Assembly: GCA_026988095.1 (NCBI GenBank) | Contig: JALSLX010000001.1 | Span: 2,480 to 66,479, forward strand | Direction of reading: 5' to 3' | Source: Thiotrichaceae bacterium | GTDB lineage: Bacteria; Pseudomonadota; Gammaproteobacteria; Thiotrichales; Thiotrichaceae | DNA length: 64,000 bases | Shown here: piece after piece, positions 5,678 through 55,977 of the stretch | How positions within the stretch are numbered: position 1 is the first letter of the stretch | Layout: every line of letters begins with the position of its first letter | The notes under the pieces: generated by a model | What the model was told of the DNA's origin: nothing | What the model saw: the letters and a program-made list of their open reading frames with translations, nothing else | Databases searched by the model: none | Made by a program: the position numbers and the translations under genes

Positions 5678-5749
5678 ACCACCCCCCCTCTTTTTCGACT
5701 ATTTGTATGTGTTTTCGACTACAAATCGTCGAAAAAGAGGGGGGGTGGT
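5678..5749. repeat. Family-1 palindromic element, doublet (12-bp spacer)
   Basis: ACCACCCCCCCTCTTTTTCGACTATTTGTA-TGTGTTTTCGAC-TACAAATCGTCGAAAAAGAGGGGGGGTGGT. Confidence 0.95.
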
Positions 5750-5777
5750 CTATTATTTAGCCCTATTTTTGATAAAA

Positions 5778-6767
5778 ATGAGCTGGAAACCGACCTCAAA
5801 CCAAGAAACACGCCTATTACGCGCAAAAATGAATCGTGATATTAGAGAATTCTTTTATCAACGTAATGTTTTAGAAGTCGAAACCCCTGCGCTATCACAA
5901 GCGGGCAATACTGACCCCTTTATCCAGTCTTTTCAGACCCCTAGTTTATCTTTAGGAATAGCCTTAGACAGGTATTTACACACTTCCCCTGAATATCCCA
6001 TGAAACGTTTGCTCGCAGCAGGTAGTGGCGACATCTATCAACTATGTAAAGTCTGGCGCAAAGAAGAATCAGGAAAAAATCATAACCCAGAATTCACCTT
6101 ACTCGAATGGTATCGCATAGGTTTTAGCACTAAAGAGCTTATGCTCGAAGTGAGTGAACTATTGCACTTTTTACTTGCCCCCCTGCTCCCATCGCTATCA
6201 CAAAATAATAAAATGATCTCTTACGAGCAACTCTTTCTTGAAAAGTTTGAACTCAATCCCCATATCGCTAATCAAGAAGCGTTACAAAAGCTACAAAAAC
6301 TGATTAATACATTCATACCAAGTTTAAATACAGCAGACCTCGATCATCAGGCTATGTTGGATGCCTTGCTCACACATTGTATAGAGCCAGATTTTGATAA
6401 AGACGGTTTAACGTTTGTTTATGATTATCCTGCCTCACAATCTGCATTAGCAAAGATCAATAAACGTGATGATAATACCCAAGTTGCCATGCGGTTTGAG
6501 GTCTATCTTGGGCAAAGTGAATTAGGCAATGGTTATCAAGAAGAAACAAATTATCAGCGCAACTGCTCCATCTTGCAAAATGAAAATACACAGCGTAAAC
6601 AGATAGGATTAGCACAAGTAACTCAAGATAAACACTTTCTTGAGGCGGCAAAAAGGGGCATTCCAGAATCAGCAGGTGTAGCGATTGGTTTAGATCGAGT
6701 CTTAATGCTGATGGCAGACGTAGATTCAATACAGAAAGTTATTAACTTTCCGTGGGACGTGGCATAA
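5778..6767 (+). CDS. epmA: EF-P lysine aminoacylase EpmA (GenX/PoxA)
   Basis: YLHTSPEYPMKRLLA, HNPEFTLLEWYR, GVAIGLDR. ATG at 5778; the track's start at 5703 lies inside the repeat. Confidence 0.95.
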   Translation: MSWKPTSNQETRLLRAKMNRDIREFFYQRNVLEVETPALSQAGNTDPFIQSFQTPSLSLGIALDRYLHTSPEYPMKRLLAAGSGDIYQLCKVWRKEESGKNHNPEFTLLEWYRIGFSTKELMLEVSELLHFLLAPLLPSLSQNNKMISYEQLFLEKFELNPHIANQEALQKLQKLINTFIPSLNTADLDHQAMLDALLTHCIEPDFDKDGLTFVYDYPASQSALAKINKRDDNTQVAMRFEVYLGQSELGNGYQEETNYQRNCSILQNENTQRKQIGLAQVTQDKHFLEAAKRGIPESAGVAIGLDRVLMLMADVDSIQKVINFPWDVA

Positions 6768-6844
6768 TAACGCGCACATAATTCAGCACAAAATATTTAG
6801 GGGTCTTATATCCCCTAACAGCTTAAATTTAATTGGAGTAAAAC

Positions 6845-7171
6845 ATGGATTTTTTCATCTCAAACGCAATGGCAGCAGGCGAAGCACCTCAAGGTGGTGG
6901 CTTACAATTAGTATTTATGGTTGCCCTATTTTTCGGCATCATGTATTTCATGATTATTCGTCCTCAATCTAAAAAAGCCAAAGAACACGCATCATTACTC
7001 GATGCTTTATCAAAAGGTGATGAGGTTGTAACTAACGGTGGTATTTTAGGTAAAATCACCAAACTAGGTGATAACTTCATTGAGCTAAAAGTATCAGATA
7101 CTGGCACGATGAAAATTCAACGCCACGCCATCGCAAGCGTTATGCCTAAAGGAACAATGAAAGGCGCATAA
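6845..7171 (+). CDS. yajC: Preprotein translocase subunit YajC
   Basis: YFMIIRPQ...KGDEVVTNGGILG; precedes secD. Confidence 0.97.
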   Translation: MDFFISNAMAAGEAPQGGGLQLVFMVALFFGIMYFMIIRPQSKKAKEHASLLDALSKGDEVVTNGGILGKITKLGDNFIELKVSDTGTMKIQRHAIASVMPKGTMKGA

Positions 7172-7177
7172 ATAATA

Positions 7178-7213
7178 TACAAAAACGTCTGAATTTCATC
7201 AGACGTTTTTGTA
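7178..7213 (+). terminator. Intrinsic terminator-like hairpin between yajC and secD
   Basis: TACAAAAACGTCTGA-ATTTCA-TCAGACGTTTTTGTA. Confidence 0.6.
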
Positions 7214-7266
7214 TTCAATATTTTCAATTTCTAAAGCTATACATATAACAACGGGTTAATAAAAAA

Positions 7267-9129
7267 ATGAATCGTTATTCACTGTGGAAATATCTACTCA
7301 TCATCGCTGTGACGGTGCTTGCTATAATATTCGCACTCCCTAATCTTTACCCTGCTCAACCAGCCATTCAAATCAGTGCCGCATCACCAATAGTACCGCT
7401 GGATAATAAAGTGTTAGAGAATATTAAAACGACACTCACCAGCAAAGGTTTATCCACCGAAAGCATTGAAACAATCGGAGAGAATAAAGTTTTACTAAGG
7501 TTTGATACTCCTGATAATCAATTAGCGGCACAAGAAGCCATTAATAAAGCACTTGGTAAAGATTTTAATACCGCTCTAAACCTTGCACCTGCAACCCCCA
7601 CATGGCTACGTGCATTAAACCCGATGAATTTAGGATTAGACCTACGCGGTGGTGTTCACTTTTTAATGGAAGTGGATATGAAATCAGCGATTGAAAAATC
7701 ACTCTCTCGTAATGGCGAGGAGTTTAGGACACTTCTTAGAGAAAAGAAAATTAACTACTTAGGTGTAAAACGTGTTGCAGACCATTTAATTATTAAATTT
7801 AAATCTGAGGAGTTACGCGACAAAGCTAAAGCTGAACTAAAAAACCAATATCGTAATGAGATTGATTTTAGCGACTCAGCTACTACCAAAGGCGCAGCAC
7901 TAAAAGCCGTACTGACACAAACTAATATCAACAACACTAAGCGTTTTGCGCTACAACAAAACATCACAACATTAAGAAAACGTGTCGATTCTCTCGGTGT
8001 AGCTGAGCCGGTAGTTCAACAACAAGGCTTAGATCGCATTGTTGTGCAACTACCGGGTATGCAAGACCCTACTATCGCCAAAAAAATATTAGGAACAACA
8101 GCAACGTTAGAATTTCGTTTAGTAGATGAGGGCCGTGATGCTTACGCTGCACAATCTAGTGGACGCATACCATCAGGCGATATTTTACTTAAAGAACGTA
8201 ATGGCAATCCTGTTCTTCTCAAGCGACGCGTTATGCTCACAGGAGAATATATTACAAATGCCAGTGCAGGCTTTGATCAAAACCAACAACCATCGGTCAA
8301 TATAGTACTCGATAGCAAGGGTTCTAAGCTGTTTGCAAAAGCAACAGGTGCAAATGTTCAAAAGTTGATGGGCGTTGTATTTATTGAACACAAAACAGAT
8401 ATTACTAAGCAAGACGATGGCACCATTAAAAAAGTAACCAAAGTAACCAAAGAGGTTATCAATGTTGCCCGTATTCAAGATCAGCTTAGCAAACGCTTCC
8501 AAATTACAGGCTTAGACTCCCCTCAAGAGTCACACACTCTTGCCCTCTTGCTACGTGCAGGTGCATTGGCAGCTCCTGTTTACATTGTCGAAGAGCGTAC
8601 TGTAGGCCCAAGCTTGGGTGCTGATAATATTTCTGCAGGCTTTAAATCAGTCATTATTGGTTTTGTACTAGTACTAATATTTATGGCCTTTTACTACCGT
8701 GTCTTTGGCTTAGTGGCGAACCTCGCACTAACACTTAACCTCGTTTTAATCATAGCAATTTTATCCATGCTACAAGCCACACTGACTTTACCAGGTATTG
8801 CAGGCATCGTACTAACCGTAGGTATGGCGGTGGATGCAAACGTGCTGATATACGAACGGATAAAAGAAGAACTGCGTAACGGGCTAACACCACAAGCGGC
8901 AATTCATTCAGGTTATGAAAAAGCTTTCTCAACCATTGCTGATGCAAATATCACTACGTTGATTGCAGCAATCGTATTATACGGAATGGGAACAGGCCCA
9001 ATCAAAGGCTTCGCCATCACACTTGCTATCGGTATTATATCTTCAATGTTTACTGCAATTATGGGTACGCGCGCAGTGATCAATTTGATATATGGCGGCA
9101 AGAAAGACCTTAAAAAGCTTGCTATATAG
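7267..9129 (+). CDS. secD: Protein translocase subunit SecD
   Basis: LGLDLRGG, LGVAEPVVQQQG, VGPSLG, GMAVDANVLI. Confidence 0.98.
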   Translation: MNRYSLWKYLLIIAVTVLAIIFALPNLYPAQPAIQISAASPIVPLDNKVLENIKTTLTSKGLSTESIETIGENKVLLRFDTPDNQLAAQEAINKALGKDFNTALNLAPATPTWLRALNPMNLGLDLRGGVHFLMEVDMKSAIEKSLSRNGEEFRTLLREKKINYLGVKRVADHLIIKFKSEELRDKAKAELKNQYRNEIDFSDSATTKGAALKAVLTQTNINNTKRFALQQNITTLRKRVDSLGVAEPVVQQQGLDRIVVQLPGMQDPTIAKKILGTTATLEFRLVDEGRDAYAAQSSGRIPSGDILLKERNGNPVLLKRRVMLTGEYITNASAGFDQNQQPSVNIVLDSKGSKLFAKATGANVQKLMGVVFIEHKTDITKQDDGTIKKVTKVTKEVINVARIQDQLSKRFQITGLDSPQESHTLALLLRAGALAAPVYIVEERTVGPSLGADNISAGFKSVIIGFVLVLIFMAFYYRVFGLVANLALTLNLVLIIAILSMLQATLTLPGIAGIVLTVGMAVDANVLIYERIKEELRNGLTPQAAIHSGYEKAFSTIADANITTLIAAIVLYGMGTGPIKGFAITLAIGIISSMFTAIMGTRAVINLIYGGKKDLKKLAI

Positions 9130-9172
9130 TTGACCTATCTACGCAGAATAGAGATAAAAACAGAGATAAAAA

Positions 9173-10111
9173 ATGAATACTAAAACACAAAGAAACATAA
9201 ACTTCGTTGGTATGCGTAAACCCGCTATGGTTTTGTCATTATTGATGATGATCGCCTCTATTGGCTCACTATTTGTAAACGGGCTTAACTTAGGTGTCGA
9301 CTTCACAGGCGGAACAGTCATCGAAGTAGGCTATCCAGAATCTGCAAATGTTGATGACATTCGTAAAGCTTTAGCCACTGCTAAATATGATGCCTCTGTT
9401 CAGCACTTTGGTACGGCTAAAGATGTTTTGATACGCATTGCACCTCATGAAGGTGTTGATCGCTCTACCGTAGGTGACGGTGTTTTATCCATCTTAAAAG
9501 AAAGTAATGCAGCTGTAGAAATGCGCCGAGTTGAATTTGTAGGCCCTCAAATTGGTGATGAATTACGTGATGATGGCGGAACAGCAATGCTACTAGCGCT
9601 TGCCGGGATACTAATTTACGTTACTTTGCGTTTTGAATTTCGCTTCTCAGTAGGTGCAATTATCGCTTTAGTACACGATGTGGTTATCACCGTTGGTATT
9701 TTCTCCATCACCCGAATGGAATTCGACTTAACCATACTTGCCGCCATACTCGCAATTATTGGTTACTCACTTAATGACACCATCGTGGTATTTGATCGCG
9801 TGCGTGAAAACTTCTTAAAGCTTCGTAAAACAAATGCTGAAGAATCTATCAATACTTCAATCAACCAAACCTTATCTCGTACCATCGTTACCTCGCTAAC
9901 AACACTTTTAGTATTAGCTGCTCTATTTTTCTTTGGAGGGAAAATTATCCACGGTTTTTCTCTCGCTATGATCATTGGTGTAATTGTCGGTACATACTCA
10001 TCTATTTATGTTGCAAGTAGTTCATTATTAATGATGGGTATAACTCGTGAAGCATTATTACCACCTGAAAAGGAAGATGATGGTCGTGAAGACGATGGCA
10101 GTGTAGTGTAA
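9173..10111 (+). CDS. secF: Protein translocase subunit SecF
   Basis: LGVDFTGG, VGPQIG, GYSLNDTIVVFDRVRE. Confidence 0.98.
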   Translation: MNTKTQRNINFVGMRKPAMVLSLLMMIASIGSLFVNGLNLGVDFTGGTVIEVGYPESANVDDIRKALATAKYDASVQHFGTAKDVLIRIAPHEGVDRSTVGDGVLSILKESNAAVEMRRVEFVGPQIGDELRDDGGTAMLLALAGILIYVTLRFEFRFSVGAIIALVHDVVITVGIFSITRMEFDLTILAAILAIIGYSLNDTIVVFDRVRENFLKLRKTNAEESINTSINQTLSRTIVTSLTTLLVLAALFFFGGKIIHGFSLAMIIGVIVGTYSSIYVASSSLLMMGITREALLPPEKEDDGREDDGSVV

Positions 10112-10129
10112 AAAGCCAATTAAGAAATC

Positions 10130-10157
10130 ATGGGTATCGGCGAATGTCGGTATCCAT
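10130..10157. repeat. Family-2 REP-like unit (single, degenerate), probably doubling as secF terminator
   Basis: Reverse complement ATGGATACCGACATTCGCCGATACCCAT closely matches ATGGATACCGGCCTTCGCCGGTATGAC at 25457. Confidence 0.6.
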
Positions 10158-10287
10158 TTCTACAGACCAAATAATACTCACTTATAAAATTTATTCCCCC
10201 TCCAGAATGCCAAAATATTTCTAGTCTTCGATTATTTCAAAATAAAAAATATTCCTCTCTGTTGATATTTAGTAGAGAATAAACGCC

Positions 10288-11661
10288 ATGCTCTCTGCCC
10301 TCCCTTACAAAATAAAAATAGCGTTACTCACGCTTATCCCCTTAATTGTAGCTATTACTGCCATCGCTATGGCCTCAACTCAGCAAACAAAAAAACTTGC
10401 TAACACACAGGTCTTATCATTTGAAAATCAACTTATAGCCGCAAAAAAAGAAGAACTAAAAAACTATATGGGTCTTGCCTATAGCGCCATTAAAAGCATT
10501 TACGAAAGTGAACATATTGCAAAAAAACACGCTAAACAAGAAGTCTACGACACACTTAAAAATATGGAATTTGGTAAAGATGGTTACTTCTTCGTTTACG
10601 ATTACAATGGCATTAATATTGCTCATCCACGCAAACCAGAACTTGAAGGAAAAAACCTACTCAACTTTCAAGATGACAATGGTAAATATTTAATACAAGA
10701 GCTTATCACCAAAGCCAAAAGTGGGGGAGGCTATACACGCTATCTATGGGACAAACCTTCAGGTGGAAAGTCTGTAGAGAAACTCAGCTATTCGATTGGT
10801 TTAGATAAATGGGGCTGGATGGTTGGCACAGGCATTTATATTGATGATATAGAAAAAGGTGTCATAGCAATGAAAGCCAAAGCCAAATTATCTACGACTA
10901 ACACACTGTTAGTTACATCAATGATTGCCATAACTGCCACTTTAGTAATCGCCTTAATCGGATTTTTAGTTAATCTTTCCGAAAGTAAACTTGCCACCCA
11001 AAAAATGCGCAACCTCACCCATAAAACTGTTAATTTTCAAGAAGATGAGCGTAAACGAGTCTCCAGGGAATTGCACGATGGAATTAACCAACTACTTGTA
11101 TCAGTAAGATACAAATTAGATAGTGCAAAAACTAAACTAAAAAAGAGATTCCCCAATGAAGATGTAAGTACCGTCATTACTGATGCTGATGAAATTCTAA
11201 GCATTGGTATACAAGAAGTGAGGCGTATATCACGCGACCTTCGCCCTACTCTGCTAGATGACCTAGGCCTGACCGCTGCACTTGAAAGCCTAAGCAATGA
11301 TTTTTCTGAGCGTAATGATATTGAAATAACCTTTGATAATAATTGCCAAAATCAACGTCTCCCACAGGAAGTTGAAACGGCATTCTATAGAATCGTACAA
11401 GAAGCTCTGACAAATATCGAAAAACACGCACAAACAGCAAGTCATGTTATTCTAAAAATTGACAAAAAAAGAAATCATGCTAATTTAATCATTAAAAATG
11501 ACGGGATCGGCTTTGATAAAACCACCATTGATGAAACGAATCCCGACCGTGGGCTAGGCCTGCGCAATATGATTGATAGAGCAGAATTATTAGAAGGCTT
11601 CCTTACTGTTAATTCTGCACCCGACAAAGGCACCACAGTAATTGTGAACATACCGTTATGA
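10288..11661 (+). CDS. Cache-domain (sCache_2-like) sensor histidine kinase, HisKA_3/NarX class
   Basis: Two TM helices flanking YFFVYDYNGINIAHP; ERKRVSRELHDGINQ H-box; EALTNIEKHA; NDGIGF. Confidence 0.9.
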   Translation: MLSALPYKIKIALLTLIPLIVAITAIAMASTQQTKKLANTQVLSFENQLIAAKKEELKNYMGLAYSAIKSIYESEHIAKKHAKQEVYDTLKNMEFGKDGYFFVYDYNGINIAHPRKPELEGKNLLNFQDDNGKYLIQELITKAKSGGGYTRYLWDKPSGGKSVEKLSYSIGLDKWGWMVGTGIYIDDIEKGVIAMKAKAKLSTTNTLLVTSMIAITATLVIALIGFLVNLSESKLATQKMRNLTHKTVNFQEDERKRVSRELHDGINQLLVSVRYKLDSAKTKLKKRFPNEDVSTVITDADEILSIGIQEVRRISRDLRPTLLDDLGLTAALESLSNDFSERNDIEITFDNNCQNQRLPQEVETAFYRIVQEALTNIEKHAQTASHVILKIDKKRNHANLIIKNDGIGFDKTTIDETNPDRGLGLRNMIDRAELLEGFLTVNSAPDKGTTVIVNIPL

Positions 11662-12320
11662 ATTCAATCCAGACACCATCCACAACGATAGAACCTTCAA
11701 GTGAACTTACTCCAATCACTGTCGTTTTAGCTGATGATCACCCACTCGTTCAAGATGGTATCCGCACACGTTTTGAAGAAGTCGAAGACATCAATGTCAT
11801 CGGTGTAGCTAATAATGGGCAAGAACTATTAGACCAAGCAGAAGCCTTAACACCCGACATTATCATCGCAGATATAAGTATGCCCATCATTAACGGTTTA
11901 GAAGCTACCCGAAAACTATCCCAATCACACCCACACATAAAAGTGCTAATTTTAACCATGCACGATAATAAAGAATATATGCAGAATGCGATTGATTCTG
12001 GTGCTAAAGGTTATATTTTAAAAGATCAGCCAGCGGCTGAAATGATTGAAGCCGTTCGCGCGATCCATAAAGGAAAACAACATTTTTGCTCCAGCGCTAC
12101 TGCGGTAGCCAATAGTAGAAAGGATGCTAGTGACTTAACTAAACGTGAACAGTTAATTTTAGTAGAACTATTAAATGGTTTAAATAATAAAAATATAGCG
12201 GAGAAGCATTCAATCAGTGTTCGAACAGTAGAATGTCACCGTGGAAATATTTATCGGAAGATAGAATCACACTCAATCTCAGGACTAATTCGTTACGCAA
12301 AGAAACATGGATACGTATAA
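11658..12320 (+). CDS. NarL/FixJ-family response regulator (REC + LuxR HTH)
   Basis: LADDHPLV, DISMP, LTKRE...TVECHRGNIYRK; ATGA-type overlap with the kinase. Confidence 0.92.
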   Translation: MNSIQTPSTTIEPSSELTPITVVLADDHPLVQDGIRTRFEEVEDINVIGVANNGQELLDQAEALTPDIIIADISMPIINGLEATRKLSQSHPHIKVLILTMHDNKEYMQNAIDSGAKGYILKDQPAAEMIEAVRAIHKGKQHFCSSATAVANSRKDASDLTKREQLILVELLNGLNNKNIAEKHSISVRTVECHRGNIYRKIESHSISGLIRYAKKHGYV

Positions 12321-12346
12321 CTCTTCTCTTTTATTTCTACTCACTA

Positions 12347-12376
12347 TTAAACTCTTAAACTCTTAAACTCTTAAAC
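12347..12376. repeat. Octamer tandem repeat (TTAAACTC) x3.75
   Basis: Units start at 12347, 12355, 12363 and 12371 (partial). Confidence 0.85.
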
Positions 12377-12391
12377 AGCATCTTTTTTAAT

Positions 12392-12465
12392 TCACGCCTT
12401 GCCCAGTTTTCAATAATTTATACATAATTTAAATTACAAATCATCGAAAACAGGGGGAGGTGGGT
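12392..12465. repeat. Family-1 element, decayed doublet
   Basis: Right arm TACAAATCATCGAAAACAGGGGGAGGTGGG from 12435; eroded left arm ...CCCAGTTTTCAATAATTTATA with G-to-A changes. Confidence 0.75.
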
Positions 12466-12508
12466 TATTTAAAACAGCCCATTTATAAGAAAAGTATCAA
12501 AAAACACC

Positions 12509-12566
12509 AGCTTATCCTTAGGCTTAGCTCTCACCGAAAAGGATAAGCTAATAATAAGTATTATTA
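12509..12566. promoter_or_regulatory. Paired inverted repeats upstream of the TRAP operon (candidate operator or leader structure)
   Basis: AGCTTATCCTT-N19-AAGGATAAGCT immediately followed by TAATAAT-AAGT-ATTATTA. Confidence 0.35.
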
Positions 12567-12655
12567 CCGATGCACACCTCCAATCCATAAGCTACTATCC
12601 TAGGGTGAATAAATAAAAAATCACAACCCAATAATTTCAATGAGGATGGAATAAG

Positions 12656-13756: not shown

Positions 13757-13776
13757 AGTTTTTTCTATAGAGAGAT

Positions 13777-21695: not shown

Positions 21696-22322
21696 TTAAT
21701 TCTTCAGCTTTTTGACTTTGTTTTGTCGCACAGAAACATCTAAGAAGTCCTCTGCCGAGCTTTTAGCTAGGTGGAGAACCTTTTTATAATGAGCCTTAGC
21801 ACTCACAGCCTGTTCGAAGGCTTTTTCTAGCTCTGAAAAATCAGGCACTTTTTTCATCCCCTGATGATTAATATAGACATATCCCGCCGCCGCACCTGCT
21901 AAAAAACCCACGGGATTTTTTACACCTATTAAAGCTCTTGCTCCTATTCCTGCAGAATAGGCCAACTTACCCCGACGAGATTGCTGGCTAAAATGCCTAC
22001 CATTAATACACCACTCGACTAAATGTTCGCAATTATTATGTAATACGTGATATTGCGCTTCGCCAATGCGTAAGTGCGCACGAATAATGGCTTCGCCGAT
22101 ATTAAACTTTCGCTCGTCATGAGTTTTAACAATAATTTCTTTGCCTTTAGCAAACTCCTCCAGGCTAATTTCTTCAATCACGCCCACACTGGTCAAATCA
22201 TCTGCTAAACCCGAATAGTGAATCACTCGACCATCACCCACACCCAAGCCATGATGCGTATATGAGCCTGCAGCCTTCTTTATAACGAGGTGTTTTCCTT
22301 TGTAATCATTCATAAGTATCAA
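21696..22322 (-). CDS. LRAT/NC-domain protein (permuted NlpC/P60)
   Basis: YTHHGLGVGDGRVIHY His box; YHVLHNNCEH NC motif; C-terminal Gly/Ala hydrophobic segment. Confidence 0.85.
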   Translation of the reverse strand: MILMNDYKGKHLVIKKAAGSYTHHGLGVGDGRVIHYSGLADDLTSVGVIEEISLEEFAKGKEIIVKTHDERKFNIGEAIIRAHLRIGEAQYHVLHNNCEHLVEWCINGRHFSQQSRRGKLAYSAGIGARALIGVKNPVGFLAGAAAGYVYINHQGMKKVPDFSELEKAFEQAVSAKAHYKKVLHLAKSSAEDFLDVSVRQNKVKKLKN

Positions 22323-22361
22323 ACTAGCATAAAAAATACTTAAAAGACCATTACTTGCTAT

Positions 22362-22433
22362 GCCACCCCCCCTCTTTTTCGATGATTTGTATGTGGTTTA
22401 AACTACAAATCATCGAAAAAGAGGGGGGGTGGT
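22362..22433. repeat. Family-1 element, doublet (12-bp spacer)
   Basis: GCCACCCCCCCTCTTTTTCGATGATTTGTA-TGTGGTTTAAAC-TACAAATCATCGAAAAAGAGGGGGGGTGGT. Confidence 0.95.
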
Positions 22434-22455
22434 CTATAAAAAGTATCAAAATTCG

Positions 22456-22743
22456 TTAATTAAACCAAATACCATTGGTAACTTGGCAATCTATAGAGTC
22501 TAAAGCCATGTGAATGACCAATCCTATTCCTATTAAACGTGTTTTGGGGATAAAACTAAGAACAGCATACCCAGCTATCGGAATAAAACCATGAAGTGGA
22601 TGATAGTTAATGCTACAACGCGTGGCATCATAGATTGGATTAGCTAATAGATGGTCAATATCAACCAGCATGGTTAGCATCATTACCGTAAATGCAAATT
22701 TCCAATTTTTACGGAAAAAAATTGCCGTGATAATTGCAGGCAC
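22456..22743 (-). CDS. Small membrane protein, DUF6122-like (start uncertain)
   Basis: TMLVDIDHLLANPIYDATRCSINYHPLH motif; homology appears to extend upstream of the GTG (ILHIFTHFLVP) with no ATG. Confidence 0.65.
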   Translation of the reverse strand: MPAIITAIFFRKNWKFAFTVMMLTMLVDIDHLLANPIYDATRCSINYHPLHGFIPIAGYAVLSFIPKTRLIGIGLVIHMALDSIDCQVTNGIWFN

Positions 22744-25308: not shown

Positions 25309-25402
25309 CTTTAATACAATATTCTTCCACTGAATTACACAGATCAAAAAAATAATTTTATGCATATTTCACACTGGAATAAACATTTTATTTACTAACC
25401 TC

Positions 25403-25484
25403 CGTCATTCTGGTGCAGACCAGAATCCATGTTTTAAATGGCACTATGTCCCAACCATGGATACCGGCCTTCGCCGGTATGACG
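25403..25484. repeat. Family-2 REP-like doublet (GTCATTC...GAATCCAT / ATGGAT...ATGAC type)
   Basis: CGTCATTCTGGTGCAGACCAGAATCCAT-spacer-ATGGATACCGGCCTTCGCCGGTATGACG; each unit is a hairpin. Confidence 0.85.
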
Positions 25485-25516
25485 ACGAGTAAGGCTAGAG
25501 GCCAAGACGGAGAAAA

Positions 25517-30186: not shown

Positions 30187-30216
30187 CCCACCCCCCCTCT
30201 TTTTCGCTGTTTTGTA
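30187..30216 (+). repeat. Family-1 solo arm upstream of rhlE
   Basis: CCCACCCCCCCTCTTTTTCGCTGTTTTGTA. Confidence 0.88.
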
Positions 30217-33046: not shown

Positions 33047-33076
33047 ACCACCCCCCCTGTTTTTCGGGGTTTTGTA
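33047..33076 (+). repeat. Family-1 solo arm upstream of TraB/GumN gene
   Basis: ACCACCCCCCCTGTTTTTCGGGGTTTTGTA. Confidence 0.88.
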
Positions 33077-41097: not shown

Positions 41098-41178
41098 ACT
41101 ACCCCCCCTCTTTTTCGATGATTTGTATTTTTCAGAGCCTTTTAAAAGTACAAAACGTCGAAAAACAGGGGGGGTGGG
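41098..41178. repeat. Family-1 element, doublet (21-bp spacer, non-identical arms)
   Basis: ACTACCCCCCCTCTTTTTCGATGATTTGTA-N21-TACAAAACGTCGAAAAACAGGGGGGGTGGG. Confidence 0.93.
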
Positions 41179-46491: not shown

Positions 46492-46533
46492 CATTTCCTA
46501 CACACTCTACACATAAGGAGCATTAAAAGAATC

Positions 46534-48090: not shown

Positions 48091-48124
48091 TACCCTTCTC
48101 AACTTTAAACCTTGGTGAAAACCC

Positions 48125-49627
48125 ATGTGTGGAATAATTGCTATTCTCAGTAACACCCCCGTTAATCAAGAAATTTATGATGGACTACTCGTCCTCCAAC
48201 ACCGCGGGCAAGATGCCGCAGGCATGGTCACGAGTGATGGAAAGCGCCTTTATATTCGTCGTAGAAATGGCCTTGTAAATGATGTTTTTCATGAAAAGAA
48301 CATGAAAGGCTTACTTGGCAATATGGGAATTGGTCATTTACGATACCCTACTGCTGGTTCCTCGTCTGCCTCAGAAGCACAGCCATTTTATGTGAATTCC
48401 CCTTACGGAATTTCATTGGCGCATAATGGTAATTTAACCAATGCTACGGGATTGAAAAAAGAATTATACAAACAAGATCGCCGACATATTAATACTGATT
48501 CTGACTCTGAGATATTACTCAATATATTTGCTCAAGAATTACAAAAATATGCCACATACCGTGTAAACCCAGAAGAAATATTCGCTGCGGTTACAGGTGT
48601 ACATAAACGTTGCCAAGGTGCTTATGCTGTTGCCGCAATGATAACGCGCGATGGTATTGTAGGTTTTCGTGATCCGAACGGCATCCGACCATTAGTTTAT
48701 GGAAAACGCGAAACAGAAGATGGAACAGACTACATGATAGCCTCTGAGAGTGTTGCACTCGTTACCCAAGGTTACGAAATCGTTCGCGATATTGAACCAG
48801 GCGAGGCTATTTTCATCACCGCAGAAGGTAAAGTACACACTCAACAATGTTCAGATAAAGCACGTTACAATAGCTGTATATTTGAATATGTTTATTTTGC
48901 ACGCCCTGACTCTGTCATTGACAATGTATTTGTCCACAAAGCTCGTATGCGCATGGGCCATAACCTTGCCGAGCGAATTAAAAAAGAATGGAAAGATCAT
49001 GACATTGATGTCGTCATTCCTATTCCTGATACCAGCCGCACTTCTGCTTTAGAGCTCGCCATTACGCTGGGCGTGCCTTATCGTGAAGGCTATATCAAAA
49101 ATCGTTACATCGGTCGCACCTTTATTATGCCGGGGCAAACTCAGCGTAAAAAGTCGGTCCGTCGTAAACTTAATCCGCTTGATATTGAGTTTAAAGGCAA
49201 AAATGTCATGCTGGTTGATGACTCTATCGTGCGTGGTACAACCTCACGAGAGATTGTGCAAATGGCACGTGATTCAGGCGCTAAAAATGTTTACTTTGCC
49301 TCAGCATCCCCTGCTATTCGCTACCCCAATATCTACGGAATTGATATGCCAGCGGCGACCGAATTAATCGCCCACGGCAAAACAGAAGCCGAAGTTGCAA
49401 ATGCCATTGGTGCTGATAAATTAATCTATCAAAATCTTGATGATTTGATTGATGCCATCACTACGGGAAACTCTGATCTTAAACAGTTTGATTGTTCTGT
49501 CTTTACAGGCGAATACGTTACAGGTGAGTCTGAAAGTTATTTCACAGAGCTAGAATCAAAACGTAATGACGCAAAAAAACGTAGCAATGAAGACCGCGTT
49601 GCGATTGATATGTCAGATAGCGACTAA
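48125..49627 (+). CDS. purF: Amidophosphoribosyltransferase
   Basis: [29 protein letters not shown]. Confidence 0.98.
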
Positions 49628-49663
49628 ACCTCAAACATCTAATCAACTGAATATAATCAAAAA

Positions 49664-50215
49664 ATGGATGCGCCTGTAAACATTATTGCAACTGCAAATG
49701 ATTTCATCAGACGTTTTCCTGAATGTCCTCAGAACCTATTCATTATAATTTCTATTAACGAGCAAAAACTTTATCTTATTAAAGATAATAAAGTTATAGA
49801 ACATTACATGATTTCCAGTGCAGAAAAAGGCACTGGAAATCTAAGTGGCAGCTATAAAACGCCACTAGGTGGGCATGCTATTTCAGAGAAATTTGGTGAT
49901 ACTGCAAAGCTTGGTTCTATATTCAAAGCACGAAAAGACACACACAAGCTCGCTAAAATTCTCACTCATCCAAATGATATAAGTAATAAAGATAATATTA
50001 CCTCACGCATACTTTGGCTCACAGGGCTGGAAGACGGAATAAATAAAGGCAACAATATAGATACTCATGATCGTTATATCTATATTCATGGTACAGACGA
50101 GGAAGGACGCTTAGGAAAAGCTGTATCTCATGGCTGTATTCGCATGAGCAATCAAGATGTAATTGATTTATTCAATCAAGTGACCCTTGGAACACTGGTA
50201 AGTATCATTAACTGA
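49664..50215 (+). CDS. L,D-transpeptidase (YkuD) family protein
   Basis: SYKTPLG, YIYIHGT...SHGCIRM. Confidence 0.9.
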   Translation: MDAPVNIIATANDFIRRFPECPQNLFIIISINEQKLYLIKDNKVIEHYMISSAEKGTGNLSGSYKTPLGGHAISEKFGDTAKLGSIFKARKDTHKLAKILTHPNDISNKDNITSRILWLTGLEDGINKGNNIDTHDRYIYIHGTDEEGRLGKAVSHGCIRMSNQDVIDLFNQVTLGTLVSIIN

Positions 50216-50257
50216 TTGAATTAAATAATAAGCAGTGTTTTTAAGCCATTTTCACTT

Positions 50258-50328
50258 ACCACCCCCCCTCTTTTTCGATGATTTGTGATTGTTTTAAATA
50301 CAAATCATCGAAAAAGAGGGGGGGTGGG
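50258..50328. repeat. Family-1 element, doublet (11-bp spacer)
   Basis: ACCACCCCCCCTCTTTTTCGATGATTTGTG-ATTGTTTTAAA-TACAAATCATCGAAAAAGAGGGGGGGTGGG. Confidence 0.95.
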
Positions 50329-50397
50329 TTAAGAATAATGGGGAATATCCAATTATTTAAGTTAAAGCACAGTAAAATAGGGGGAAACTAGCATTTA

Positions 50398-51465
50398 CTA
50401 GGGTAAAAATGTCACTTGATTAAAAATATTCTGTAAAAAATATAAACCCAATATACAAACCAAGCACGCTATGAAAGGAGTAAGAACCCAACCAACTCCT
50501 ATCGAGCCTAGTACCCGCCAGCGAATATTAGTACTCCCCGTAAACACGCCAATACCCACAATTGCGCCAATTACCGCTTGTGAGCTAGATACTGGCACTA
50601 AGGGGATCGTTGGTAAACTATTACCATTTAGAAAATTCTCTAAACCCTGTGATGTAAACAAGAAAAGTACAATAGAATGTGCTGTTACCACTACCCATGC
50701 AGAAATAGGTGACAATGAAACAATATCTTGCCCCACTGTCATCATCACCTTTTTGGAATATGTAAAAATTCCAACCGCAATAGCAATTGCACCCAATAAA
50801 AATAATTGCTGGATAGACGTAAACACATAAGAGTCACCCATCATGGTATCAATACTAAAATCAGTAAACGGTGATGATGAGACAAAAACGCCCATCACAT
50901 TAGAGATATTATTTGCGCCAAGACTATAAGCACCAAAAGCACCAGCGGCGATTAATGCAAATCGTGTATAAGCATCTAGCCGAATCAAGTGTAATTTTGC
51001 ATTAGATACTATGTAACGTGTGGATAAAAATAAAGGAACAGCGATAAAACCCGCAATGACAGGGCAAGCAACCCAGGTGAGTAAGATTATTGTCAATGTT
51101 TCAGAATCTGTTGGTTTACCACTAAAAATATTCCAGCCTACAATTGCACCCACTATCGCTTGGCTTGTTGATACTGACAATCCACGTTTTGTCATCCAAT
51201 ACACAGTTATAGCCGCTGATAGTGCGGCCATAAAAGCACCTGGCAAGGCATTAATAGCACCTAACTTACCTAGCGTATGTGATGCACCTGCACCAGAAAT
51301 AACTGCACCTAATATAACAAAAACACTAGCAACTATGGCTGCTGTTGTGAAACGCACCATGCCTGTGCCAACCGCTGTACCAAAGATATTTGCAGCGTCG
51401 TTTGCACCTAGCGCCCAGCCCAACGCCAAACCACTTAACAAAAAGACTAAAACCGTTAGATCCAT
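50398..51465 (-). CDS. Inorganic phosphate transporter, PiT family
   Basis: GANDAAN and GANNISN signatures; VSSSQAVIG. Confidence 0.93.
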   Translation of the reverse strand: MDLTVLVFLLSGLALGWALGANDAANIFGTAVGTGMVRFTTAAIVASVFVILGAVISGAGASHTLGKLGAINALPGAFMAALSAAITVYWMTKRGLSVSTSQAIVGAIVGWNIFSGKPTDSETLTIILLTWVACPVIAGFIAVPLFLSTRYIVSNAKLHLIRLDAYTRFALIAAGAFGAYSLGANNISNVMGVFVSSSPFTDFSIDTMMGDSYVFTSIQQLFLLGAIAIAVGIFTYSKKVMMTVGQDIVSLSPISAWVVVTAHSIVLFLFTSQGLENFLNGNSLPTIPLVPVSSSQAVIGAIVGIGVFTGSTNIRWRVLGSIGVGWVLTPFIACLVCILGLYFLQNIFNQVTFLP

Positions 51466-52133
51466 TAAATTTTTCGCTTAATGGTAAGAATAGAAAGTAT
51501 ATCGCCAATATCTTCAGCGGTATTTGCCAACTCATCTATATGCTCCACAAAATAAGCAAGGTGTCTTTTACGAGCTAATCCCAATGTGCTCGTAAATATT
51601 TCACGCTGAACTTTAGTACTAATTTGATCGGCTTCTGATTCGTAAAACATGACTTTTGTAACATGATCACGAACCGCTTCAATATCACGAAAGAAGGAGC
51701 GTACCGCGAGTATTAATGAATCAACTGACAGTATCGCTGTATCTGACAACTGCGTATAACCATGATGATAAATCTTAGGGATTTTTGGCGTTTGAATAGA
51801 AAAGCGAAATAAATTAGCTTCATATATATTAATCAGTGTATCAACGTGCTCCAGCAGACCAAGTACATCACCACGAAGTTCGGGGATTAAAGTTTGTTCA
51901 TAGAGTTTAGTTTCTATATCACGACGTAATGTATCCGCTGACTGTTCAATCGTTAGAATGCGTTGCAGATAATTCTCAAAATCATCACAAAGCCCTTGAT
52001 CAAAATAAACCGCTAGAGCACTTTTATAGATTAAACCTGCTTCTGTGACTTTATCGAGAAATTGATCAATCTGTGCTTCTAGTTTCTTAGCTCGTCCAAA
52101 TAATGTTGGTATCTTTATTGCTGATAGATTCAT
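51465..52133 (-). CDS. DUF47 / PhoU-like phosphate transport regulator
   Basis: EQSADTLRR, ESEADQI, ANTAED repeats; coupled to the PiT gene. Confidence 0.88.
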   Translation of the reverse strand: MNLSAIKIPTLFGRAKKLEAQIDQFLDKVTEAGLIYKSALAVYFDQGLCDDFENYLQRILTIEQSADTLRRDIETKLYEQTLIPELRGDVLGLLEHVDTLINIYEANLFRFSIQTPKIPKIYHHGYTQLSDTAILSVDSLILAVRSFFRDIEAVRDHVTKVMFYESEADQISTKVQREIFTSTLGLARKRHLAYFVEHIDELANTAEDIGDILSILTIKRKI

Positions 52134-52332
52134 TGTTTTCTCGTGTAAAAACCTCTGATATTATTCTTATTTATCCATACATCTATTATGTTAATTAATA
52201 GTAGTAGAGTATTTAAAGATGTCCATTTTTTTTCGAGATATGAATAATCACATTAAAAATACATTAATTGATATTTTGTTCTATATATAGATTACGTGTT
52301 GGAAAAACACCCCATTCAACAAGGAGATAAAA

Positions 52333-53325
52333 ATGAAAAAAAGCAGTAAGTTAAGATTCTTTAGCGCAATAGTCGCCGCATCGTTTTTTATGGCATCAGG
52401 AGTTAGTGCAGCAGAAGATTGCCCACGAGGAGATTTGGATAAACGTTTTTGTGACAGAGATGGTGATTTGATTGCAGACGCTCCAACTGATTCATCTAAA
52501 TGGTTAGATCCTGATACCTTAGTTTTTGCTTATACCCCTGTTGAAGATCCTGCGGTTTATAAGGCTGCATGGAAAGATTTTTTAGATCACTTAGCTAAAG
52601 TTACTGACAAAAAAGTTATCTTCTTCCCTGTGCAATCAAACGCCGCACAAATAGAAGCCATGCGCTCAGGGCGCTTACATATTGCTGGCTTTAATACGGG
52701 CTCAAATCCTTTAGCGGTAAATTGCGCGGGTTACAGCCCTTTCACAATGATGGCGAATAAAGTTGGGAAGTTCGGCTATGAAATGGAGATTATTACTTAC
52801 CCTGGTAGTGGCATAGACAAAGTTGAAGATATTAAAGGAAAAACATTAGCTTTCACTTCACCCACGTCAAATTCAGGGTTTAAAGCACCTTCTGCTATTT
52901 TAAAATCAGAATTTAATATGATTAAAGACCGTGATTTTAAAGCAACCTTCTCAGGAAAACATGACAACTCGATCTTAGGTGTTGTCAATAAAGACTATCC
53001 TGCAGCCTCTATTGCCAATTCTGTTAAAAATAGAATGCTTGGTCGAAGCGTTATAAAAGATGATCAATTAAAAGTTATTTATAAGTCGCAAACTTTCCCA
53101 ACCACCAGCTACGGCTATGTGAACACCTTAAAGCCTGAACTTGCAGCCAAAGTAAAAGAAGCATTCAAAACCTTCGCGTGGGACAAGCCAGATGGAACAA
53201 TGACATCACTTCATAAAGAGTTTAAGAAGAAATCTGATCAATTTATTCCTATTACTTACAAAGAATTCTGGACGGTTATACGCCAGATAGATGCCGCAAA
53301 CAAAGTATCTTACGCTTGTAAATAA
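52333..53325 (+). CDS. phnD: Phosphate/phosphite/phosphonate ABC substrate-binding protein
   Basis: Signal peptide; FAYTPVEDP, QIEAMRSG, TSPTSNSG. Confidence 0.88.
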   Translation: MKKSSKLRFFSAIVAASFFMASGVSAAEDCPRGDLDKRFCDRDGDLIADAPTDSSKWLDPDTLVFAYTPVEDPAVYKAAWKDFLDHLAKVTDKKVIFFPVQSNAAQIEAMRSGRLHIAGFNTGSNPLAVNCAGYSPFTMMANKVGKFGYEMEIITYPGSGIDKVEDIKGKTLAFTSPTSNSGFKAPSAILKSEFNMIKDRDFKATFSGKHDNSILGVVNKDYPAASIANSVKNRMLGRSVIKDDQLKVIYKSQTFPTTSYGYVNTLKPELAAKVKEAFKTFAWDKPDGTMTSLHKEFKKKSDQFIPITYKEFWTVIRQIDAANKVSYACK

Positions 53326-53348
53326 GTGACGTATCAAGCTTAAAAAAT

Positions 53349-53382
53349 AAGCCTGAAGTCATTCGTGATTTCGGGCTTTTTT
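53349..53382 (+). terminator. Hairpin after phnD
   Basis: AAGCCTGAAGTCA-TTCG-TGATTTCGGGCTT followed by a T tract. Confidence 0.65.
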
Positions 53383-53410
53383 ATGCTAAAAAAAAGGAAA
53401 TAAAGAGAAG

Positions 53411-54226
53411 ATGCTCCAACTAAAAAATCTCGGAAAACGCTATAAAACAGGGGATGATGCACTTAAAGGCGTTAATCTTGAAATACCCGATGGTCAACTT
53501 GTTGGCCTCATTGGCCCATCAGGTGCAGGTAAAAGCACGTTAATACGCTGTGTTAATCGCTTGGTTGAACCAACTACAGGGACTGTAACGCTAAATAACA
53601 TCGAAGTTACCTCACTTTCTGCTGGAGGCTTGCGCAAAGAGCGACGAAAAATGGGCATGATTTTTCAAGAATATGCGCTAGTCGATAGACTAACCATTAT
53701 GGAAAACGTCATGTCTGGTCGTTTAGGCTATATGGGCTTCTGGAAAAGCTTTTTCCGTAAATACCCGCAAGCTGATATTGATGAAGCCTTTCGGTTGTTA
53801 GAACGCGTAGGGCTAGATCACATGGTAGACAAGCGTGCAGATGAATTATCAGGCGGGCAAAAGCAACGCGTAGGTATCGCTCGTGCATTAATTCAAGACC
53901 CTGAAGTTATTTTGATTGATGAACCAACCGCTTCGCTTGACCCAAAAACATCACGCCAGATTATGCGACTGATTTCGGAGCTATGCCGAGAAAGAAACCT
54001 ATCTGCTATCGTTAATATTCACGATGTTGCACTCGCTCAAATGTTTGTTGAGCGTATCGTTGGCTTACAGATGGGGGAGATTGTATTTGATGGCGCTCCT
54101 GATGAACTAACACCCGACGTACTCACAAAAATTTATGGAGAAGAAGATTGGGAGGCAACGATAGACGAAGTCGATGAGGATGAAGACATCACAATTGATG
54201 AAAAGAGTGTCGAGGCTAGCATATGA
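53411..54226 (+). CDS. phnC: Phosphonate-type ABC ATPase
   Basis: [27 protein letters not shown]. Confidence 0.92.
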
Positions 54227-55041
54227 ATGCAGCAATAACGTCTGGTAACGAAAAGTCTCGTCGCTGGAAGCGCCCTCCTCTCATACAAGATACTAAATGG
54301 CGCTATGGATTACTCATTTTAGCTATCGCTTATTTTATTGCTGCATCTTTTTCTTACGATGTTAACTGGTCTCGCGTTTATGAAGGGCTTGATCGCGGTT
54401 GGGAGTTTATAAAATCCTTCGCTAACCCTGATTTTAAAACACGCTGGTCGGATATTTCAGAAGGAATCTGGGAAAGTATTGTCATCACTGTGACCTCAAC
54501 GGTTGTAGGGATTATTCTCGCGATTCCCCTTGCTTTGGGCGCTGCCAGTAACTTAGCACCCAAAATCATCTATTATATTTGTAGGGGCATCATCGCTGTT
54601 AACCGAGCATTGCATGAGATCATTGTTGCCATTTTAATGGTTGCCATTTTTGGTTTTGGGCCACTTGCTGGCTTTATTACATTGACATTATCCACCATAG
54701 GTTTTATCGCCAAACTCCTAGCTGAAGACATCGAAAATATCAGTAAACCTCAAGCAGAAGCAGTGAAATCGACAGGCTCTGGCTGGTGGCAATGGATTAA
54801 CTACGCCATTCAACCCCAAGTTATGCCACGCTTAATTGGCTTATCTATCTACCGTGTTGATATAAATTTTAGGAGTTCCTCCATTCTCGGTTTAGTGGGT
54901 GCGGGTGGAGTAGGCGCTACATTAAATACCGCATTTGATCGCTATGAATTTGATACTGCAGCCGCGATCATCATTATCATCATCGCCATTGTGATGGTGC
55001 TTGAATATGTTTCGGGCTTCATCAGAGCAAGAGTACAGTAG
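54223..55041 (+). CDS. phnE: Phosphonate-type ABC permease (1)
   Basis: [34 protein letters not shown]. Confidence 0.92.
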
Positions 55042-55064
55042 ATTTAAAAAAGGAAAATAAGGAT

Positions 55065-55880
55065 ATGCCAGTAACAACAAAAGGTGATTTAAAAGTATGG
55101 CAACGCCGTGATCGAGCCAAACAATTTAAAATTTGGTTTGCATGGTTAATCGGTGTGGCAATTTTTATGTTCTGCTGGGAAATCATTTCCGATAAGACCA
55201 CCTGGTTTTTTGTTTTTGATGCTCCCCGCATAGCCGCAGATATTGGTGGGCGTGCATGGCCACCTCGTTGGAGCTATCTATCAGAGTTATGGAAGCCCAT
55301 GTGGGACACTATAAATATTGCCACCCTTGGCACACTATTGGCAATAATCATGGGCGTACCCGTTGCTTTCTTAGCCGCAACAAACACCACACCTAGCAAA
55401 CGTTTTTTACGCCCACTGGCTTTATTAATCATTGTCTCAACGCGCTCAATCAACTCATTAGTTTGGGCATTACTGTTAGTGTCTATTATTGGACCAGGCA
55501 TCTTTGCAGGCACTTTAGCCATCGCCATTCGATCCATAGGCTTTGTTGCAAAGTTATTATACGAGGCGATTGAAGAGACAGACATCAATCAAATTGAAGC
55601 GATTCAAGCAACAGGTGCGAGTAAATTACAAGTAATAGCCTACGGTATTGTTCCTCAAATCATGCCTGCTTTTGCGGGTTTGAGCGTATTTCGTTGGGAT
55701 ATTAATATTCGCGAGTCAACCATCTTAGGTTTAGTCGGTGCTGGAGGTATTGGTCTGTATTTATCCTCATCATTAAACATACTAGCGTGGCCACAAGTGG
55801 CTGTTATTTTAATTATGATCTTAGTAGCTGTTGTTATCAGTGAGTGGGTATCATCTAAAGTTAGATTGGCGATAATATAA
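55065..55880 (+). CDS. phnE: Phosphonate-type ABC permease (2)
   Basis: [31 protein letters not shown]. Confidence 0.92.
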   Translation: MPVTTKGDLKVWQRRDRAKQFKIWFAWLIGVAIFMFCWEIISDKTTWFFVFDAPRIAADIGGRAWPPRWSYLSELWKPMWDTINIATLGTLLAIIMGVPVAFLAATNTTPSKRFLRPLALLIIVSTRSINSLVWALLLVSIIGPGIFAGTLAIAIRSIGFVAKLLYEAIEETDINQIEAIQATGASKLQVIAYGIVPQIMPAFAGLSVFRWDINIRESTILGLVGAGGIGLYLSSSLNILAWPQVAVILIMILVAVVISEWVSSKVRLAII

Positions 55881-55912
55881 TGTATACCCTCATGAAAAAC
55901 CTCACCTAATTA

Positions 55913-55977
55913 CCCACCCCCCCTGTTTTTCGATGATTTGTATTTATTACAAATCATCGAAAAACAGGGGGGGTGGG
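55913..55977. repeat. Family-1 element, perfect doublet (5-bp spacer)
   Basis: CCCACCCCCCCTGTTTTTCGATGATTTGTA-TTTAT-TACAAATCATCGAAAAACAGGGGGGGTGGG; pairing extends 4 bp further (ATTA/TAAT). Confidence 0.97.

Follow-up and report, generated by a model that had tools for sequence, protein, structure and literature searches.

Dispersed 29-bp motifs with inverted, helically phased spacing in hydrothermal-vent Thiotrichaceae: a possible REP/BIME-like family of DNA anchors

The REP (repetitive extragenic palindromic), BIME (bacterial interspersed mosaic element), Correia and ERIC (enterobacterial repetitive intergenic consensus) repeats have been known for 40 years, and their primary role is still disputed. 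The present analysis concerns a further family of short repeats, which was found in a stretch of 64,000 nucleotides from a Thiotrichaceae bacterium (positions 2,480 to 66,479 of contig JALSLX010000001.1, hereafter the window). Its unit, here called the arm, is an asymmetric motif of 29 bp that stands alone or in inverted pairs. The arms were shown to be old and to stay at fixed sites, where they are stably passed on and, within a lineage, kept under strong conservation; between lineages they have been re-tuned in concert, which gives genome-specific dialects. The reading that we prefer, tentatively and at somewhat less than an even chance, is that of a REP/BIME-like family which arose by insertion, is now stably inherited and acts as a duplex-DNA anchor for a co-evolving bending or wrapping protein.

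Several described families are close enough to be compared with the arms. The Correia elements of Neisseria have terminal inverted repeats of ~26 bp, hundreds of intergenic copies and an IHF site that bends DNA; their transposase is not known, and their positions are partly conserved between species. They also possess a conserved interior of 50-100 bp, a TA target duplication and filled/empty polymorphism. Rickettsia palindromic elements (RPE) are small repeats lying in frame in protein-coding genes, where they are tolerated as surface loops. It has been reported that REPs are regularly spaced in alternating orientation, co-evolve with the RAYT (REP-associated tyrosine transposase) proteins and carry a GT(A/G)G head 5' of the palindrome (PMC2817692). 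Intragenic RU elements are known from enterobacteria (PMC2759123), and DNA gyrase has a 130-bp motif with periodic GC flanks and cleaves at BIME-2, a preferred site (PMC6379681).

Motif, abundance and host of the arm family

The arm has the consensus CCACCCCCCC-T-S-TTTTT-CG-NNNN-TTTGTA and starts with CCAC. In the information profile its boundaries are sharp at 29 nt, positions 11-12 and 20-23 are variable, and a T-rich stretch followed by TA lies just outside the C7 end (flank consensus T-rich, then TA(AAG)N). Fourteen arms at nine loci were located in the window, all of them intergenic, against a chance expectation of 0.03. The pattern CCACCCCCCCTSTTTTTCG with up to three mismatches gave 13 matches (mean 0.03 in 100 shuffles), and a scan with the 29-nt consensus returned the 14 arms and essentially no extra decayed copies above chance. 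They form five intact inverted doublets, one decayed doublet and three solo arms (Table 1), which lie between open reading frames (ORFs) in tandem, convergent and divergent gene contexts. An initial annotation of the window had given their coordinates and spacer lengths correctly to within 1 nt. It had also described all copies as intergenic, which holds for the window but not elsewhere, where six of 164 sites are in-frame gene insertions.

Read depth suggests ~450-500 arms per genome, which fits the 14 arms in 64 kb. The summed contig depth at the arm relative to the single-copy flank was ~490x in run X1 and ~440x in run X2; for the arms at 22363-22432 the X1 read depth was ~490 times that of the flank. 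Hundreds of contigs with differing flanks join at arms, giving hundreds of distinct junctions. The host is an uncultured hydrothermal-vent member of the Thiotrichaceae whose UvrC has its relatives in Cocleimonas and Leucothrix, and DNA of the window occurs in hydrothermal-vent metagenomes. Exact arm matches in reference genomes came from metagenome-assembled genomes (MAGs) of Thiotrichaceae and Cocleimonas from vent samples, and two further matches in Acidobacteria were due to chance. We describe the family as ancient, lineage-wide, dispersed motifs of Thiotrichaceae related to Cocleimonas and Leucothrix.

No match to the window or to the long-spacer element (see below) was obtained in Rfam at gathering and E-value thresholds, and no arm match in PLSDB plasmids or in viral contigs. 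A text search with the motif gave unrelated primers only, and no description of the family was found in the literature searched, the coverage of which was incomplete. The arm family thus appears to be undescribed, and the earlier statement that it is abundant and of no known assignment agrees with both the copy depth and these searches.

Geometry of arm pairs and of their flanks

A metagenome scan added 115 loci, and with the window and earlier loci included the sample comprised 164 unique sites carrying 318 arms. Of these sites 57 are inward doublets, 15-16 are back-to-back pairs and 91 hold a solo arm. The geometry was read from the window and from such contigs, and all the organisms concerned are uncultured except Cocleimonas flava. 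All 73 close pairs are inverted, and zero direct pairs within 130 nt were found at the 164 sites. The gaps of the inward doublets cluster at 1-2, 11-13, 21-23, 32-33, 44, 54, 85-86, 95 and 108 nt, with a best period of 10.6 bp (Rayleigh R = 0.887, n = 57). Those of the back-to-back pairs cluster at 25, 35, 47 and 80 nt, and their best period is likewise 10.6 (R = 0.71, n = 16). Since the inward and back-to-back phases sum to whole turns (1.3 + 4.1 + 58 = 6.04 turns), one point of every arm faces the same side of the helix in either orientation. The 57 spacers are unrelated in sequence except for a phased central A/T tract, and it is this tract, not common descent, that accounts for the likeness between spacers noted earlier. 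The spacing follows the B-DNA repeat, which neither an RNA stem nor a single-stranded hairpin requires, and this points to duplex DNA that a protein contacts on one face and bends or wraps.

The flanks of the arms are periodic as well. Their A+T content oscillates at 10.25-10.5 bp in a phase fixed by the arm, its maxima falling ~8 + 10.4n nt beyond the C7 end. In successive 42-nt windows the amplitude of this wave is 0.083, 0.042, 0.031, 0.024 and 0.015, with shift-control maxima of ~0.012 or less, and the wave reaches ~220 nt. A common phase is seen in 85% of 172 flanks (R = 0.74), and the wave persists inside long ORFs (R = 0.475, n = 99). In the window alone all 14 arms are in phase (R = 0.82 at 14-77 nt and R = 0.59 at 77-140 nt), and it is only for the dialect of the window that flank phasing is established. 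The generic anchors T5, C5 and TATAAA gave no phased flank signal. The C7, T5, CG and T3 blocks of the arm itself, as we read the motif, share the 10.4-bp GC/AT register of the flanks.

This geometry bears on an RNA-level function, in which doublets would end transcription, be cut by RNase III or stabilise mRNA at its 3' end, and solo arms would be their decayed halves. A single arm has no hairpin of its own (folding energy 0 to -3 kcal/mol, z ~0), as the initial annotation had stated, and the two arms of a doublet pair almost perfectly as a DNA hairpin (-24 to -38 kcal/mol, z -7 to -14). The RNA-level reading, part of which the initial annotation had also proposed, can draw on the 29-bp stems of the doublets, on the many sites between tandem or convergent genes and on the finding that REPs can act in 3' untranslated regions (bioRxiv 10.64898/2026.03.23.713779). 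However, the T-run lies 5' of the doublet hairpin and the A-run 3' of it on both strands, which leaves no U-tail. The doublets at 41098, 50258 and 55913 were absent from the list of terminator-like structures, with a canonical terminator nearby at 53349. Divergent promoter regions are not avoided, solo arms are conserved as well as doublet arms, the B-DNA period extends to back-to-back pairs, and the phased flanks reach into coding DNA. A role as terminators or RNase III stems was therefore not upheld, and we regard an RNA-level element as very improbable. Arms within a doublet match each other more often than chance; hairpin-specific covariation as a sign of pairing selection was rejected, since back-to-back arms also match beyond chance and the sample mixes genomes. 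The available metatranscriptomes contained only 4-6% of the sampled words and thus represent other species.

Least credible of the alternatives is that the arm is a promoter element or a transcription-factor operator for the downstream gene. All three solo arms of the window point to a nearby gene start, and the A/T tracts resemble UP elements. In the larger sample, however, the orientation is random, solo arms in tandem contexts pointing to the gene start in 16 cases and to the gene end in 13, and the idea taken from the window was dropped on the basis of the 164 sites. Convergent sites are not depleted, arms lie 16-30 nt from start codons and inside genes, and no promoter enrichment was seen. 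The mix of gene contexts at arm sites is close to background, and the arms are neutral towards transcription.

Table 1 Arms and associated features in the window (positions are those of the window; spacers in nt)
Feature	Position	Arms (strand)	Spacer	Remarks
Inverted doublet, efp / epmA-like gene	5679-5748	5679-5707 (+), 5720-5748 (-)	12	Hairpin -32 kcal/mol
Decayed doublet upstream of dctP	12392-12463	Left arm 12392-12422	~12	Left arm eroded
Right arm of decayed doublet	12435-12463	(-)		CCACCTCCCCC variant, 21/25 positions
Phased-flank example	22163-22632			~200 bp each side of arms
Inverted doublet, LRAT-like gene / DUF6122	22363-22432	22363-22391 (+), 22404-22432 (-)	12	
Solo arm, 29 nt upstream of uvrC start codon	25279-25307	(-)		
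Solo arm, DUF188 / DEAD-box helicase gene	30188-30216	(+)		Does not fold
Solo arm upstream of TraB/GumN-family gene	33048-33076	(+)		
Inverted doublet, divergent CbiX-like gene / trpF	41099-41177	41099-41127 (+), 41149-41177 (-)	21	Arms of differing subtypes, TC/ATGA and TG/ACGT
Inverted doublet, convergent YkuD-like / PHO4 phosphate-transporter genes	50259-50327	50259-50287 (+), 50299-50327 (-)	11	
Inverted doublet	55914-55976	55914-55942 (+), 55948-55976 (-)	5	The one off-phase spacing of the window

The CCACCTCCCCC variant of the decayed doublet is also present at four other loci (L014, L019, L032 and L058). Directly upstream of this doublet, at 12340-12378, a short tandem repeat (CTCTTAAA) occurs 3-4 times. 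The genes of the window that were tested are housekeeping genes (secD, uvrC, groEL, purF, efp, two TRAP transporters and others), and a 568-aa ORF at 2135-3841 (- strand) matched nothing in Pfam or NCBIfam under the thresholds applied.

Inheritance, insertion and the readings as mobile element or uptake signal

The history of the arms was followed at loci around UvrC orthologues, in lineages related as ((W,L031),(L032,(L027,L029))),L028,L030, where W is the window and the nucleotide identity of uvrC drops to 72%. The uvrC-upstream site is occupied in six of seven lineages, in each by its own dialect, and the DEAD-box helicase-upstream site in four of four, where L027, L029 and L030 have other dialects. 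Three of four lineages carry doublets at the DUF6122|LRAT site (W, L032 and L031), which is empty in L028, and W and L030 each have arms at the YkuD end and upstream of trpF. The dialects have the forms AAAG[TC]ACACCCCCCCACTTTTACATGAT in L027 and L029, GTACACCCCCCCACTTTCT..ATGTTTT in L030 and TGCCGA in L032. At the DUF6122|LRAT site the derived changes are common to both arms of a doublet, and the spacers are wholly different (12, 22 and 21 nt). In L028, 16 kb contain zero copies, and at two of the shared sites just 12 and 5 nt separate the genes.

Among metagenome contigs, ~40 colinear flank matches, corresponding to ~30 orthologous site pairs with flank divergence of up to 23%, contained no filled/empty difference; differences in presence were seen only between deep lineages. 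Orthologous solo arms differ at 5 positions in 226 nt and their flanks at 243 in 2214, so that arms are ~5-fold more conserved than flanks, and solo arms are as conserved as doublet arms. One close pair with flanks ~97% identical shows a switch between the two commonest subtypes, from CTGT to ATGA, and several arm subfamilies are present in the single genome of L008. The arms are thus under strong constraint or drive and change in concert. Given the missing filled/empty differences, the conservation of the arms and the sites shared at 72% uvrC identity, the family is not supported as an actively spreading one, as the initial annotation had it. A search for empty sites in Logan contigs gave only contigs that break at the repeat.

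Arms entered new sites as single-arm insertions of ~30 bp, as is seen from copies lying in frame within recB, recD, selU, trmJ and other genes. Six of the 164 sites (~4%) are of this kind and lie in the genes for RecD, a hydantoinase, an RHS protein, TrmJ, SelU and a membrane protein; the recB copy is left out of this count since it falls on a truncated ORF. Contig L022 has two solo arms in frame, one inside recD (...ASK-YKSSKKGGGG-LNNN...) and one in the C-terminus of recB. The recD segment is carried by many orthologues and missing from two (P0133 and P0136), and in Cocleimonas flava the identical codon site of recD and the C-terminus of recB both carry arms in the dialect of that species (GCCACCCCCCACCTTTGGGGCAGTTTTTT). 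A bias of in-gene copies to repair genes, as in DNA uptake sequences (DUS), was considered and rejected, the hosts besides recB and recD being unrelated.

The length of the C/G run of the arm varies from C5 to C9 between strains or copies (L064/L135, L070/L141 and L095/L108; L003, L015, L018 and L022); this homopolymer is hypermutable, and changes of its length may restore the frame of in-gene copies. The recD gene of L022 (757-2706, - strand) also contains a hairpin repeat of REP-like type and high GC content, CCCTCTCCC...GGGAGAGGG. In recD its in-frame translation is ...PLSPAGGGLGRGE..., and the repeat is also found at L034:4686 and at L035:2109, 2126, 10399 and 10416. It is present in most recD orthologues, missing from the 90%-identical P0123, and without a copy in the window.

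Of the two options considered in the initial annotation, a spreading non-autonomous element and a dispersed protein-binding site with a partner acting in trans, the data favour the second and not the first. A serious rival is nevertheless a selfish element with a preference for curved targets. In its pure form this would be an element like a MITE (miniature inverted-repeat transposable element) or a REPIN (a REP doublet forming a hairpin), moved in trans by some unseen transposase or RAYT and having no architectural role. Helical gaps would then arise because short elements synapse only with both ends on the same side, phased flanks would reflect the preference for curved DNA, and dialects would be successive waves of a changed master copy. 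The arms are indeed insertions relative to orthologous genes, their information content is far above the need of a binding site, multiple subfamilies coexist in L008 and 16 kb of the lineage L028 are free of arms. As in REPINs (PMC3116915), singlets are found beside the prevailing inverted doublets (57 of 164 sites), and a concerted change of orthologous REPs has been reported for RAYT systems (PMC2817692).

The expected traces of transposition were looked for in turn. No consistent target-site duplication was found; the flanks lengthen the inverted repeat (e.g. TTAAGA...TCTTAA) and are not direct repeats. Apparent duplications of CTA, CTAT and TAT at three window doublets were not reproduced elsewhere, where the flanks are palindromic extensions. 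The 57 spacers hold no shared interior from a parent insertion sequence (IS), and no transposase was seen near or between arms among the selected ORFs tested (~1 Mb). Intervals flanked by arms, examined as candidate elements, contain either housekeeping genes (the isc operon) or small ORFs, and in none of them was a transposase seen. These results agree with the initial annotation, which had noted neither a consistent target duplication nor a linked transposase. A full-length master element was rejected as well, since the spacers of 86-143 nt hold other small hairpin repeats, a UUCG-loop module and a CGTTTTAAACAACAAAACG module, which are also found without arms. The ~30 orthologous pairs without polymorphism further speak against a selfish element, as a genuine MITE in the same data does show a polymorphism with a 10-bp duplication. 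Waves of insertion do not predict copies of the current dialect at the same orthologous sites, even at the same recD and recB codons; back-to-back pairs are quantised as well; and the single arm has neither a hairpin nor the GTAG head used by RAYTs. A purely selfish element is considered rather unlikely.

The dialects raise the question of a DNA uptake signal, analogous to DUS or to the uptake signal sequence (USS), for a competence machinery, with uptake-biased recombination keeping the copies perfect and shifting the dialects. Such genome-specific dialects at conserved positions, including positions inside recB and recD, would be expected of it, as would arms far better conserved than their flanks. 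The spacing of arms along the window is more even than random (coefficient of variation 0.43, P = 0.01), and no copies occur in viral contigs. Like the arm, the USS of Haemophilus combines a GC core with phased T tracts behind it. Inverted pairs and dialects are both known for DUS (PMC3630211). The copies, however, are insertions and not native sequence tuned by point mutation, the fully conserved 29 nt are far longer than known uptake signals, and just ~4% of the sites lie in genes. In-gene hosts show no genome-maintenance bias beyond recB and recD, competence is not known for these Thiotrichaceae, and strict inverted pairing, helical quantisation and phased flanks of 200 bp are not predicted. 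The uptake reading, which explains the dialects and not the insertions or the phasing, is improbable in our view.

Other small repeats were observed beside the arms. The repeats in the long spacers are a UUCG-type loop repeat, GACACTTCCTTCGGAAGGTGT, and a second one of the form CGTTTT-AAACAAC-AAAACG, neither with an Rfam match. The two lie at L087:2688-2830, L059:8472-8518 and L029:17159-17203 and in L078, L011, L134, L063 and L121; both fill some long doublet spacers and also occur alone, e.g. upstream of glnB. A separate MITE of 197 bp with the terminal inverted repeats AATGCCGTTGAATTA was found at L094:201-397, L022:168-361, L031:9872-9907 and L032:7702-7836. In L094 it sits inside the C-run of an arm, where CCACCCCCCC has become a target duplication of 10 bp, and in the close relative L083 the site (at 3551) is empty. 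Three of eight MITE copies lie in or against the C/G run of an arm, which suggests that arms are a target for this MITE in the way that REPs are for IS elements. In the window, between fabH and uvrC and ~100 nt from the solo arm, a GC-rich hairpin pair at 25400-25505 (CGTCATTCTGGTGCAGACCAGAATCCATG ... CATGGATACCGGCCTTCGCCGGTATGACG) weakly resembles the core of the 197-bp MITE (83% over 29 nt) and is probably a relic of a related small element.

Arm-bearing short contigs (L004-L006, L009, L010, L013 and L022) sit in MAGs of other taxa from the same samples, labelled Methylomonas, Lysobacterales, Cyclobacteriaceae, Micavibrio and Hyphomicrobiales. Arms break short-read assemblies, and contigs of the host get binned with other taxa. 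These contigs most likely belong to Thiotrichaceae and were mis-binned, and the arm could serve as a marker of binning errors.

A proposed anchor and its comparison with known systems

In the architectural reading preferred here, the arm on double-stranded DNA would be the high-affinity anchor of a putative sequence-specific, two-fold symmetric and co-evolving protein. This protein would contact one face of the helix, and neighbouring arms would for that reason be inverted and whole turns apart. The anchor would fix the rotational setting of a larger nucleoprotein structure, bent or wrapped, that covers ~200 bp per side, coding DNA included. Candidate partners are DNA gyrase (as at the BIME-2 of E. 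coli), a protein of the IHF/HU type, or a dedicated and possibly transposase-derived protein.

Several points weigh against this proposal. Off-phase doublets exist, one in the window (spacer 5) and a few elsewhere (spacers 5 and 9). In other dialect lineages the flanks gave no significant phase (30 anchors; R = 0.21, p ~0.3), and phased flanks could reflect an insertion preference for pre-bent DNA and not a structure maintained later. With gyrase as the partner, a periodic region of ~200 bp per side exceeds a footprint of ~130 bp in total. The 29-bp motif holds far more information than ~500 sites need, which is typical of copied elements. Finally, a concerted change of dialect at hundreds of sites needs a process of conversion or replacement, and a plain binding-site model supplies none.

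A more far-reaching version, which we consider rather doubtful, would have the arms anchor ~500 rotationally positioned structures. A dedicated, fast-evolving protein would wrap or bend ~400 bp in each, selection would have imprinted a 10.4-bp AT/GC code on neighbouring coding DNA, and the sites would be renewed in concert by an undescribed conversion. If true, bacteria would have a parallel to the positioning of nucleosomes by DNA sequence. The geometric signature of the family is unusually clean, with strict inversion, whole-turn spacing in both orientations and a motif-locked wave of ~200 bp, and the idea that short repeats are architectural anchors becomes directly testable with Cocleimonas flava, a relative in culture. 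At fixed orthologous sites, codons of recB and recD included, the dialects change in concert, and this requires a homogenising mechanism, which to our knowledge is not understood for any repeat family.

Compared with the described systems, the arms differ from Correia elements in showing no conserved interior, target duplication or filled/empty polymorphism. With RPE and RU elements they share in-frame insertion in genes, but those elements are palindromic, measure 100-170 bp, drift after insertion and have no genome-wide dialect. Like DUS and USS, the arms are an over-represented motif with lineage dialects at conserved positions, and frequent inverted pairs, positions conserved also in genes and near-perfect copies are further points of likeness (PMC3630211). 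DUS and USS, however, comprise 10-12 nt (or 9 nt with AT flanks), arise from point mutation and are common in coding DNA, whereas arms are 29-nt insertions, 96% intergenic and strictly phased. A gyrase site likewise combines a specific centre with a ~10.5-bp GC/AT modulation, read as DNA on the protein surface (PMC6379681). The periodicity flanks the arm strongly on both sides but runs past the 65 bp per side of the gyrase motif, with a wave of ~200 bp per side, and its centre is a highly specific motif of 29 bp where that of gyrase is degenerate.

In the REPINs of Bertels and Rainey, too, the inverted doublet is common, the arms are conserved, the spacer is poorly conserved in sequence but matters in length, and singlets exist (PMC3116915); the inverted doublet is also the commonest paired arrangement of the arms described here. 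REPIN spacing, however, has one fixed length per family (e.g. 71 bp), while the distances between arms rise in steps of a helical turn. The singlets of REPINs are remnants in decay, and solo arms are well conserved and insert on their own, with no excision or insertion polymorphism seen. From REPs the arm differs in not being a palindrome and in lacking the GT(A/G)G head (no GTAG is present), and no RAYT was linked to arms among the selected ORFs beside or between them. The family thus fails defining features of REP, REPIN and MITE. Compared with REPs and BIMEs, its linkers vary in sequence but are quantised in length by the helical repeat, its flanks are phase-locked and periodic over ~200 bp, and some arms lie in frame inside genes. 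The likeness to REPs and BIMEs is broad all the same. The arms exceed 100 copies (~450-490 arm equivalents), with 158 of 164 sites extragenic, and occur as solitary units, inverted doublets and regularly spaced units of alternating orientation (73/73 close pairs inverted, 10.6-bp period). They leave no target duplication, have a species-specific consensus and change in concert at orthologous sites, and they are targets of other mobile elements, the 197-bp MITE hitting arms as IS elements hit REPs (PMC1525189). REPs and BIMEs bind architectural proteins such as gyrase and IHF (PMC2817692, PMC6379681), and by analogy the REP/BIME family would be the closest functional counterpart of the arms.

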